Shown here in pieces: positions 40,325-42,481 of a DNA stretch of 50,122 nt (positions are counted from its first letter, which is position 1; the number at the start of each line of letters is the position of its first letter). The stretch is taken from assembly GCA_031431735.1 (NCBI GenBank), contig JANPDZ010000466.1:1-50122 (forward strand). Reading direction: 5' to 3'. Origin of the DNA: Acidobacteriota bacterium (GTDB taxonomy: Bacteria; Acidobacteriota; Blastocatellia; Pyrinomonadales; Pyrinomonadaceae). The notes beneath the pieces were generated by a model, which worked only from the letters and a program-made list of their open reading frames with translations, made no database searches and was not told the DNA's origin. A program made the position numbers and the translations under genes.

Positions 40325-42481
40325 ATGAAACGCTACGTCATCAAACGCGATGAAGGCTCTTTGCCGGAAAAACTGACTCGTTACCGCGAGGAATTGAACG
40401 CCGAACAATTTCGCGTCGTGACGGCAAAACCGCAAGCGTCGCTGGTCGTTGCGGGTGCGGGCACGGGCAAGACGCGGACGATCACTTATCGCGTCGCTTA
40501 TCTGATCGAGCAGGGCGTTTCGCCGCAAAAGATCTTGCTGGCGACATTTACGAATCGGGCGGCGCGTGAGATGCTGCGGCGCGTTGAAAACTTGACGGGT
40601 TCGCAGAATGTCCATCGAATTTGGGGCGGAACATTTCACCGGATCGCTAATTTAATTTTGAGAAGACACGCCGTTTCAATCGGCTACGATTCAAATTATT
40701 CGATCCTTGACAGCGAAGACGCGAAGGAATTTGTCAACGTTTGCATTGACGAAGCCGGAATTGACACGAAAGCAAAGCGTTTCCCGAAAGCCGAAGTCAT
40801 CCAGGGCATTATTTCCTACGCCAACAATACCGACCTGCCGATCGAAAATGTGATCATCGGAAAATATCCGTATTTTGAAATGCTCACCCAACAGATCAAG
40901 CGCGTTGATTTGATCTTTCAAGAGCGCAAGCGCGAACGAAACGTGATGGATTACGACGATCTGCTGCTCAACTGGAAACGTCTTTTGATCACAAAACCCG
41001 AAATTGCCGACCTATATGCCGAACAGTTTGAGCATATTCTCGTTGACGAATATCAGGACACGAACCGGCTCCAAGCCGAAATTATTGACCTGCTCGCGGT
41101 CAAACACCGCAACGTGATGGTTGTCGGCGACGACGCGCAAAGCATTTTCGGGTGGCGCGGCGCGGAATTTACGAATATTTACGAATTTCCAAAGCGTTAT
41201 CCCGAGGCGGAAGTCTATAAACTCGAAACAAATTACCGAAGTACGCCCGAAATTTTAGGACTTGCCAATACTTCGATCGCCTGCAACCGCAAACAATTCC
41301 CGAAAATGCTCAAAGCGGTTAAGAAATCGCGCGAATTCAAACCCGCGCTCGTTCCTTGTTCAAACGTCGAACAGCAATCGGCATTTATCGCTTCGCGGAT
41401 ACTGGAACTGCGCGACGAAGGCACGTCTTTGGAAGAAATTGCGGTGATGTATCGTTCGCATTACCATTCGCTCGAATTGCAATTGGAATTAACGCGCCGG
41501 AATATTCCGTACCGCGTCCAATCAGGCGTCAGATTTTTTGAACAAGCACATCTCAAAGACGTCATCTCTTACCTCAGAATCATCGTCAATCCGCGTGACG
41601 AACTGGCGTGGAAACGAATCTTAAAGATGATTCCGAGCGTCGGCAACGCAACCGCGAATCGGATTTATGAAGCGATGGTTTTGTCAGAACCGCCTGCGGT
41701 AGCGGGTGGTTTAACGCGCACATCCAAAAACCTCGCTTCAAACAACAAACTTCAACCATCCGCTACCGCAGATGGTTCTGACAAGTTGACGCTGACGCTT
41801 CCCGCATCGCTCAATCGTCTGCAAAGCAAGCAAGCGTGGCAAGATTTCGTCAAGCTCCTTGAATTGTTAACAACCGACGAAAACCGCAATAATCCCGCGA
41901 AACAGATCGAACTGATCCTGACGAACGGCTACGAACAGCATTTGCAGGAAACTTTCGAGAACGCCGAAGCCAGGTTAGAAGATCTGCGCCAGCTTGTTTT
42001 ATACGCGAGCCGTTACGATTCGACCGAGAGTTTCTTATCGGAACTCGCGCTGCTTTCGACCGAACGCTTCAAAGAACCGACCGGCATCGCGGGCGAAGAT
42101 GTCATTCAGGGTGGCGAAGAAGACGAGCTTTTAACCTTAACGTCGGTGCATCAGGCAAAAGGTCTGGAATGGAAAGCCGTTTTTATAATCTGGGCGGCGG
42201 AAGGCAAATTTCCTTCGCCGCGAAGTTTAAAAGAAATTGATTCCGAAGAAGAAGAACGCCGCCTCTGGTATGTCGCATTAACGCGTGCGCAGGACGAACT
42301 TTATCTGACCTATCCGCTGATGATGGTTGATTATTCGCGCCAGACCATTCTGCAAAAACCGTCGCGCTTTATTATGGAATGTCCGCCGATTCTGTTTGAA
42401 GTCTGGAGTCTCGAAGAGGAAGCGCGCGCCTTTGACGCGCCGATCGAAGTTGAATCCAAATCACAGGAATTTTTCAACTGA
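40325..42481 (+). CDS. UvrD/PcrA/Rep-family ATP-dependent DNA helicase
   Basis: Walker A AGAGTGKT, DEYQDTN, VGDDAQSIFGWRGA, YRS, VHQAKGLEW, ALTRAQDELYL. Confidence 0.85.
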   Translation: MKRYVIKRDEGSLPEKLTRYREELNAEQFRVVTAKPQASLVVAGAGTGKTRTITYRVAYLIEQGVSPQKILLATFTNRAAREMLRRVENLTGSQNVHRIWGGTFHRIANLILRRHAVSIGYDSNYSILDSEDAKEFVNVCIDEAGIDTKAKRFPKAEVIQGIISYANNTDLPIENVIIGKYPYFEMLTQQIKRVDLIFQERKRERNVMDYDDLLLNWKRLLITKPEIADLYAEQFEHILVDEYQDTNRLQAEIIDLLAVKHRNVMVVGDDAQSIFGWRGAEFTNIYEFPKRYPEAEVYKLETNYRSTPEILGLANTSIACNRKQFPKMLKAVKKSREFKPALVPCSNVEQQSAFIASRILELRDEGTSLEEIAVMYRSHYHSLELQLELTRRNIPYRVQSGVRFFEQAHLKDVISYLRIIVNPRDELAWKRILKMIPSVGNATANRIYEAMVLSEPPAVAGGLTRTSKNLASNNKLQPSATADGSDKLTLTLPASLNRLQSKQAWQDFVKLLELLTTDENRNNPAKQIELILTNGYEQHLQETFENAEARLEDLRQLVLYASRYDSTESFLSELALLSTERFKEPTGIAGEDVIQGGEEDELLTLTSVHQAKGLEWKAVFIIWAAEGKFPSPRSLKEIDSEEEERRLWYVALTRAQDELYLTYPLMMVDYSRQTILQKPSRFIMECPPILFEVWSLEEEARAFDAPIEVESKSQEFFN
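41683..41782. repeat. ~100-bp palindromic element inserted in frame in the helicase CDS
   Basis: GTCAGAACCGCCTGCGGTAGCGGGTGG .. CCATCCGCTACCGCAGATGGTTCTGAC; translated as SEPPAVAGGLTRTSKNLASNNKLQPSATADGSD between conserved helicase motifs. Confidence 0.75.

Follow-up and report, generated by a model that had tools for sequence, protein, structure and literature searches.

REPtrons, which combine repetitive extragenic palindromic (REP) sequences with a REP-associated tyrosine transposase (RAYT, or TnpA-REP), are said to have been treated by Nunvar in 2010 and by Messing in 2012, the latter reportedly with the structure PDB 4ER8. Here we describe a family of REP-like hairpins in Acidobacteriota, starting from a palindrome that lies in frame in a helicase gene of contig JANPDZ010000466.1 (Pyrinomonadaceae). 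The stretch analyzed, called the window below, comprises 50,122 nt of this contig. REP sequences, bacterial interspersed mosaic elements (BIMEs) and REP doublets forming hairpins (REPINs) have been treated together with RAYTs by Bertels and Rainey (2011; PMC3116915).

Quentin et al. (2018; PMC6006769) placed the class 3 TnpA-Y1 transposases between IS200 and the REPtrons. According to the portions of that article drawn on here, these enzymes occur mainly in Planctomycetes and Acidobacteria and carry the motifs NHVH and Y----Q, and the genes encoding them are bordered by several high-copy hairpins with the 5' foot CnGA; in the same portions, intragenic in-frame copies are not reported. Such copies were described by Di Nocera, De Gregorio and Rocco (2013; PMC3733652), who found GTAG- and CGTC-tagged REPs, single or dimeric, entirely within open reading frames (ORFs) for known proteins in several phyla, where they encode about 10 to 30 residues. 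Many of the hosts are replication and repair genes, including those for a UvrD/REP helicase and for excision repair and recombination; different REPs lie at about the same recB site in two Xanthomonas species, and the richest case is Opitutus terrae (Verrucomicrobia). The classic example, the Rickettsia palindromic elements (RPEs; Ogata et al. 2000 and 2002, as cited in PMC10969869 and PMC3733652), are in-frame palindromes as well and occur in many unrelated, apparently functional genes.

In the window, the host of the palindrome is an intact gene on the plus strand (40325 to 42481) for a 718-aa UvrD/PcrA-like superfamily-1 helicase (UvrD-helicase, E 7e-76; UvrD_C, E 1e-55). An earlier annotation, made from the letters and ORFs of the window alone (the sequence-only reading), had reported an in-frame palindrome of about 100 bp in this gene, and the sequence, the predicted fold and the shuffle tests all agree with that description. 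A repeat finder gave inverted-repeat arms at 41681 to 41714 and 41751 to 41784 (34 nt each, 88% complementary, 36 nt apart). Judged by family-wide conservation, the element proper is the 100-nt stretch from 41683 to 41782, which has GTCAG...CTGAC ends and consists of two 29-nt arms and a 42-nt loop. Its plus-strand layout is GTCAGAACCGCCTGCGGTAGCGGGTGGTT, 42 nt and then AACCATCCGCTACCGCAGATGGTTCTGAC, and its translation within the helicase ORF is LSEPPAVAGGLTRTSKNLASNNKLQPSATADGSD. Folded as RNA, the palindrome reached -59.6 kcal/mol (z = -8.85), and none of 200 shuffled sequences was as stable.

When the 27-mer of the arm was searched with up to three mismatches, three matches were found in the window, at 41683 to 41709 (plus strand), 41756 to 41782 (minus) and 24495 to 24521 (minus), and no match of any kind in 100 shuffles. 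The third arm lies in a gene on the minus strand for a 179-aa GNAT acetyltransferase (24149 to 24688), where a single unit, GTCAGAACCGTCTGCGGTAGCGGGCGGGT (24493 to 24521, minus strand), is read as SEPSAVAGGL. Its frame relative to the arm is the same as in the helicase (LSEPSAVAGGL), exactly as the sequence-only reading had it. That reading had also assigned 37 shared nucleotides to the two genes and regarded the GNAT copy as a part of the palindrome. The arm match holds and the third arm is real; the GTTTT upstream of both window copies, however, is not part of the element, since no family-wide conservation extends past the G of GTCAG, and what the GNAT gene contains is one entire unit, not a truncated palindrome.

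The expectation that further copies would be found was borne out. Scanning species-representative genomes for the exact pattern GTCAGAACCNNCTGCGGTAGCGG gave at least 120 stretches, counted as loci across genomes, and most of these loci are intergenic, in both orientations. All but one were assigned to metagenome-assembled Acidobacteriota of the Pyrinomonadaceae / Pyrinomonadales / Blastocatellia / Chloracidobacterium group, and the taxa with helicase orthologs of 80 to 95% identity are identical to those of the repeat-bearing loci. We then took a census of arms, defined by up to six mismatches to the 27-mer, in 808 kb from the listed loci and the window. It comprised 232 arms, namely 86 inverted pairs and 60 single arms. 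The sequences covered by the analysis also include complete Pyrinomonadaceae chromosomes (OY969475.1, OZ244558.1, OZ244585.1, OY970389.1, OZ252034.1 and JASGKA010000002.1). The spacers of the inverted pairs measure 2 to 223 nt, with modes near 20, 40 and 50. Conservation starts sharply at the G of GTCAG and spans about 29 nt, the flanks being unconserved; each position of the GTCAG tail is conserved at 94 to 99%.

Each arm is a hairpin in its own right. Positions 5 to 14 pair with positions 19 to 28 around a GGTA loop, which gives a 10-bp stem (AACCGCCTGC/GCGGGCGGTT) behind the 5'-GTCAG tail. As DNA, a single arm has a folding energy of -8 to -12 kcal/mol. In the helicase gene, the left unit GTCAGAACCGCCTGCGGTAGCGGGTGGTT (41683 to 41711, plus strand) has the 5-nt tail, the 10-bp stem with a G:T wobble at pair 9:24, and the GGTA loop. 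The right unit (41754 to 41782), which reads GTCAGAACCATCTGCGGTAGCGGATGGTT on the minus strand, has A:T and T:A at pairs 9:24 and 10:23, and the right arm (ACCATC...GGATGG) is a fully compensated variant of the left arm (ACCGCC...GGGTGG). Between the two units lies a 42-nt spacer (41712 to 41753, plus strand) that varies in sequence and length among orthologs and copies.

The same kind of compensation was seen throughout the census. Pair 9:24 is G:C in 148 arms, A:T in 62, G:T in 15 and something else in 4, and pair 10:23 is C:G in 187, T:A in 24 and T:G in 8. Among 92 distinct arms, 88.3% of the stem cells are paired, as compared to at most 58% when the partner is slid. Furthermore, 41 cells show double-sided changes versus 11.7 ± 2.5 in shuffles, none of which (0/500) reached 41. 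Because the arm folds on itself and covaries internally, we conclude that the repeating unit is a 29-nt self-folding hairpin, present as an inverted doublet in the helicase gene and as a single copy in the GNAT gene. In Rfam, no family matched the element above threshold; the sub-threshold matches were generic long hairpins (plant and animal miRNA precursors) and were rejected.

This architecture is of the REP and BIME/REPIN type and not that of a DDE-type miniature inverted-repeat transposable element (MITE). A classical MITE would be a deletion derivative of a DDE insertion sequence, moved by cut-and-paste via its terminal inverted repeats, and the inverted termini of 29 to 34 nt, the length of about 70 to 130 nt, the non-coding nature and the high copy number would all suit it. 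However, flanking direct repeats (k ≥ 3) indicative of a target-site duplication were present at the element ends of none of the 86 doublets. Single arms are frequent and are inserted as such, as seen from the one 30-nt unit in GNAT orthologs (171 versus 161 aa), and every arm folds by itself with internal covariation. ORF clustering around 120 loci revealed no recurrent DDE transposase near the copies, and a Y1 transposase gene is flanked by units in all five cases described below. We therefore hold a MITE origin to be very improbable. At the insertion points, only a weak upstream bias was detected (T at -1 in 45%, A at -2 in 42%), which provides no usable target motif.

Comparison with orthologs showed empty sites for both host genes. 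Among the 120 listed helicase orthologs, the 689-aa proteins lack the insert and read ..PFALVKKDDFKYKPRS.. or ..AENPFALVKKDDFKYKPRS.. at the site, and the ortholog at locus L101, which is 66% identical, is also without it. At the DNA level, a filled (L127) and an empty (L129) helicase ortholog differ by an element that sits cleanly between recognizably homologous flanks. GNAT orthologs of 161 aa read YVAL-SENK-IVGTFF at the empty site, those of 171 aa contain exactly one 30-nt unit (WSEPSAVADGLN), and those of 178 to 201 aa have longer or decayed versions of the insert; in one form, two units stand in tandem. Measured against the 161-aa orthologs, the whole GNAT insert of the window spans 24467 to 24521 on the minus strand (lower boundary approximate) and amounts to about 18 codons, that is, the REP unit and some 24 nt extra.

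If the segment had instead belonged to the proteins from the beginning and had a function in them, for example as a conserved linker or an interaction motif SEPPAVAGG, the good conservation of the arm-encoded peptides in many helicase and GNAT orthologs would follow. The empty sites in both genes speak against this, as do the orthologs that read the same nucleotides in a different frame. In addition, the same DNA is mostly found between genes and in both orientations, it is all that the unrelated hosts have in common, and the segment has no counterpart in PcrA or UvrD. An ancestral origin is thus scarcely credible, even less so than a MITE. In agreement with the sequence-only reading, the data support a mobile repeat that was inserted in frame into unrelated genes.

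Other repeats were noted at the helicase site and elsewhere in the window. Six helicase orthologs (P0035, P0038, P0044, P0055, P0059 and P0074) have GSPRVSKG ... ALAHARASA / LLTRGLLP at the place of window residues ~450 to 500. At the protein level, GSPRVSKG and ALAHARASA are reverse-complement translations of each other, and another palindromic family appears to occupy the same permissive 2B-domain site. In further lineages the site holds LQTTNYKLQTNPKSEIQNPKS, a peptide typical of other repeats, and heptamer-type peptides (..NPKSEIQNPKS..) were also seen there in other lineages. In the window itself, short tandem units (AAGGGTAA-type octamers, GGATTGC heptamers, AGTGCA(A/T) and CGCGAGT) are arranged in inverted arrays that form long hairpins, located at 33354-33537, 37067-37146, 12166-12270, 34902-34977, 35601-35698, 16434-16514 and 45347-45533. 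A separate palindrome with perfect 28-nt arms (GACTGGAGCGCAAGCGTCCCCGCTTGCC; 6013 to 6040 and 6125 to 6152, 84 nt apart) is unrelated in sequence to the hairpin family.

The inserts are located in a linker of helicase domain 2B and in a beta-hairpin turn of the GNAT protein. The complete, REPIN-like inverted doublet (41683 to 41782, plus strand, 100 nt) encodes helicase residues ~454 to 486 (peptide SEPPAVAGGLTRTSKNLASNNKLQPSATADGSD) and begins about 10 residues past the SVG (= GIG) motif, in the 2B-domain region. PcrA and UvrD align to the helicase up to residue 446 (SVG, corresponding to GIG of UvrD) and again from residues 503 to 528 onward, with no alignment in between. We take residues ~454 to 486 to be the variable part of domain 2B as it is seen in UvrD and PcrA structures. 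In an AlphaFold model of the helicase (43 close orthologs), the mean predicted local distance difference test (pLDDT) score was 56.6, and residues 453 to 493 formed a coil of lowest confidence. The GNAT model was better (mean pLDDT 82.6) and showed the insert as a turn between the strands 49-56 and 77-86, with a pLDDT of about 50. A tryptic peptide across the helicase insert would end ...SEPPAVAGGLTR. Directly upstream of the GNAT gene, an ORF of 950 aa (21277 to 24129) is highly repetitive; its repeats, judged by sequence to be WD40-like PD40/FG-GAP-type (..SPDGSKI.. and ..GDFDGDGK..), are unrelated to the palindrome.

Copies inside genes were counted among the census arms by requiring that the frame stay open for 60 codons or more on either side of the arm. 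By this definition, 44 of the 232 arms (19%) lie deep in ORFs, as compared to 58.6% of random 27-nt windows from the same sequences. The repeat family is therefore depleted about three-fold from genes. In each orientation, an arm has two open frames and one that is closed by TAG or TGA. The genic arms are read as SEPPAVAGG (20), PPATAGGSD (18), VRTACGSGW (4) or HPLPQAVLT (2), so that the first two readings make up 86% (38/44). The frame combination SEPPAVAGG...PPATAGGSD needs a doublet length of 1 modulo 3, and indeed all 11 genic doublets checked on this main frame pair have it. Hosts with Pfam domains on either side of the insert include Mfd, CarB, HypF, an M1 aminopeptidase, a GH15-esterase, a copper-type ATPase, an Eco57I-type methylase and a deacetylase-glycosyltransferase. 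One gene of the M1 aminopeptidase family (L056, 2 to 2812) accommodates three in-frame doublets, at 313 to 493, 2284 to 2416 and 2557 to 2635. That one repeat contributes peptide insertions to unrelated proteins, as previously proposed from the helicase and the GNAT gene, is supported by these many hosts, which share only the repeat DNA.

HuH-Y1 transposase genes were detected in the loci with a motif regex taken from Quentin et al. (2018), and L121, L122 and L123 were added from long contigs. Their products comprise 161 to 174 aa with the motifs NH[AV]H ... YV.N.Q, and units lie on either side of each of the five genes examined. In L077 (6271 to 5762), the gene encodes a 170-aa Y1 protein (NHVH...YVINGQ; PF01797, 23.7 bits at a cut-off of 23), with a doublet 8 nt past the stop codon and a single unit about 30 nt ahead of the start. 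In L040 (1828 to 2313), the 161-aa Y1 protein is 47% identical to that of L077; one doublet ends 12 nt before the start and a second one begins 2 nt past the stop. In L121, L122 and L123, the units on both sides point inward. In the protein collection, the Y1 family counts 957 members or more, and for several of them the Joint Genome Institute (JGI) uses the name "REP element-mobilizing transposase RayT". Among the listed homologs, the HuH motif NH[AVI]H is present in about 100 of 120, and in 88 of the 98 that have both motifs, YV.N.Q follows 61 residues after it, in the form YV[VIL]NGQ.

The flanking units of the L077 type have a GTAA loop (..CCTGCGTAAGCGGG..), and those of the L040 type have the GGTA loop that is found in the window and in the dispersed copies. 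The regions of the two subtypes are L077 5642-6329, L121 1411-2102, L122 1460-2070 and L123 1237-2065 for GTAA versus L040 1680-2500 for GGTA. The GTAA loop abolishes the TAG stop codon of the third frame, and some predicted proteins begin with the resulting SQNRLRKRAA. Among the 120 listed L077 homologs, the closest relative of the L040 type has at most 55% identity. Since no close L040 relative was present among them, the GGTA-subtype REPtron amounts to one locus. The two loop types suggest that there are two subfamilies of the enzyme, each paired with a unit subtype of its own. Contig JASGKA010000002.1 contains both the L040 REPtron and an in-frame doublet (L002) in a P-type ATPase gene.

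The chemistry of IS200/IS605 TnpA and of TnpA-REP is known. From this precedent and from the position of the genes, we infer that the Y1 protein probably mobilizes the units. Two other searches for a transposase gave candidates that were rejected. ORF clustering around the 120 loci led to nothing but large families of paralogs (sigma-54 activators, kinases, ABC/MacB, SDR and others). A RAYT query, the E. coli TnpA-REP sequence checked against 4ER8, matched L088 (5532-6179) and L012 (3078-3698), but both are flanked by unrelated inverted repeats and hence are not the cognate enzyme. The arms that flank the RAYT-like gene in L088 are perfect over 44 nt (TTTGGAGTGCGCCGGCAGAGCGCAGCGGCGACGGCGCTTTGGAT), and several independent Y1-repeat systems seem to exist in these Pyrinomonadaceae genomes. 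Also in L012, a predicted HslU-like ORF (1559-2992) begins within a repeat unit (MTNHPLPPVVLT...), and its N-terminus is inflated by the repeat.

The most likely explanation, to which we assign a high although not overwhelming probability, is a REP-like hairpin family that is mobilized by Y1 as single-stranded DNA and whose genic survivors lie in frame in surface linkers. A small HuH-Y1 transposase (IS200/RAYT-related and class-3-like) would copy or move the units as hairpins of single-stranded DNA, and its gene, lying itself between such hairpins, would constitute a REPtron. A single-strand mechanism would produce no target-site duplication. Insertions into genes would mostly be lost. Survivors would be those that keep the frame (doublet length 1 modulo 3), avoid the two frames closed by TAG or TGA, and are read in a frame of small flexible residues (SEPPAVAGG / PPATAGGSD) within surface linkers, where the peptide is presumably neutral for function.

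Several points weigh against this explanation. The Y1 proteins score below the curated cut-offs for both RAYT (NF047646; 17 to 20 bits, cut-off 80) and IS200 (NF033573; 21 to 29 bits, cut-off 55) and barely exceed the Pfam cut-off. Their association with the hairpins is one of position only, no Y1 gene was found within the 50-kb window, and the GTAA-loop subtype accounts for four of the five REPtrons, so that the GGTA subtype of the window is represented by L040 only. The canonical 5' GT[AG]G tag of REPs is absent from the unit. As the helicase model is poor, the placement of that insert in a surface loop comes mainly from the alignment with PcrA and UvrD. Finally, a purely neutral passenger would not keep the sequence identity described next, unless by gene conversion, re-insertion or selection.

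In seven orthologous helicase inserts, the arms have a mean nucleotide identity of 88%, as compared to 56% at the four-fold degenerate sites of the gene, and the spacers cannot be aligned between orthologs. Both arms have thus remained close to the consensus of the family. The differences between the arms fall mostly on the compensating pairs 9:24 and 10:23; in L126 and L130, pair 13:20 has changed from G:C to A:T. In the latter two, the left arm is in another frame and is read as VRTAYGSGR. Selection at the protein level cannot explain the conservation of the arms. It could be due to gene conversion from the genomic pool, to repeated replacement or to selection on the hairpin.

If selection were the cause, the element would have been co-opted by the host, and the genic hairpins would be kept at the nucleic-acid level, for instance for mRNA stability, for translation pausing or as a protein site on DNA. 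The contrast between arms and four-fold sites, the concentration of changes on pairs 9:24, 10:23 and 13:20, the conservation of a left arm even in another frame and the very stable RNA fold would be in line with this. In addition, G:T and T:G intermediates outnumber A:C and C:A ones (23 versus 6), which points to a structure on one defined strand. However, the same pattern would result if the hundreds of copies in the genome acted as donors in gene conversion, or from repeated replacement by Y1, and the two discrete arm subtypes, GC and AT, are exchanged as whole blocks between orthologs, in keeping with templated replacement. Moreover, many orthologs have no element or an unrelated repeat at the site, so that no host function of the element is indispensable, and Rfam provided no match above threshold. 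Co-option is therefore unlikely, although less so than a MITE. Somewhat more room, while still improbable, we give to the broader notion that the intragenic hairpins are not inert, be it that the structured DNA or RNA has a function for the host, or that Y1 or gene conversion keeps rewriting the genic copies. If so, a mobile hairpin population would, either way, continue to remodel surface linkers of repair proteins such as UvrD/PcrA and Mfd.

We return to the preferred explanation, a Y1-mobilized REP-like family, to assess what it adds. It provides a well-resolved system of the REP/REPtron type in Acidobacteriota, an abundant, poorly cultured soil group in which such elements have barely been described. 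It connects the class-3-like HuH-Y1 transposases, on which little work has been done, with a defined hairpin unit, and the subtypes of protein and loop, two of each, match. The many in-frame insertions in housekeeping proteins form a large natural data set on loop tolerance and on the uniformity of genic hairpins. When these genomes are annotated, repeat-derived segments and spurious ORFs can be recognized by the peptides SEPPAVAGG, PPATAGGSD, VRTACGSGW and HPLPQAVLT. The family gains some interest from how cleanly unit and transposase are paired and from the genic hairpins, whose conservation is unexplained.

With the REP/REPIN-RAYT systems, the family shares a short, self-folding palindromic unit of high copy number that is mostly extragenic, frequent inverted doublets with variable spacers (86 doublets versus 60 singles), the lack of target duplications, a small HuH-Y1 gene embedded among units of its own family, and the pairing of different Y1 subfamilies with different unit subtypes (GGTA versus GTAA loop). 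It differs from them in that no GT[AG]G precedes the stem on the 5' side; its tail is GTCAG, the only GTAG being one that spans the loop and the 3' stem. Its Y1 proteins score far under the curated RAYT model, the hosts belong to the Acidobacteriota and not to the Proteobacteria, and an unusually large fraction of the copies lies in frame within genes.

Compared by description, the resemblance to class 3 TnpA-Y1 extends to the occurrence in Acidobacteria, the HuH-Y1 protein of about 170 aa, the NHVH-type and Y----Q motifs and the high-copy flanking hairpins. The CAGA foot directly before the stem of the unit corresponds to CnGA in Quentin et al., and the intermediate status of class 3 matches the weak scores to both the IS200 and the RAYT NCBIfam models. 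The Y motif is different, namely YV[VIL]NGQ or YVENCQ versus the published YV[VI][AENY]EQ. The REPs of Di Nocera et al. are similar in being in-frame intragenic units, in having a UvrD-type helicase as a host and in the presence of different repeats at one site of orthologs; they belong to another sequence family and another taxon and have another tag.

The sequence-only reading had compared the palindrome to the RPEs of Rickettsia as an independent example. Like the RPEs, the units are palindromic repeats in frame in unrelated genes, at positions compatible with a protein surface. There appears to be no sequence relation, however, and most of the copies described here are intergenic. RPE-1 is about 100 to 150 nt long, has a family-specific peptide and no known transposase, unlike the 29-nt hairpin with its putative Y1. 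The ends GTCAG...CTGAC distinguish the family from the CGTC-tagged RPE-4 and RPE-6, and it is set apart from RPE-1 to RPE-10 by description. Independence thus stands; that the RPEs are the sole precedent does not, as in-frame REPs are known (PMC3733652). Our literature search yielded no description of this repeat family in Pyrinomonadaceae, Blastocatellia or Chloracidobacterium. The phenomenon as such, in-frame REPs, is already known from other phyla, and what is new is the hairpin family in Pyrinomonadaceae/Blastocatellia. Because of its putative cognate Y1 transposase, this family is nearer to the REP/RAYT systems than to the orphan RPE-1.

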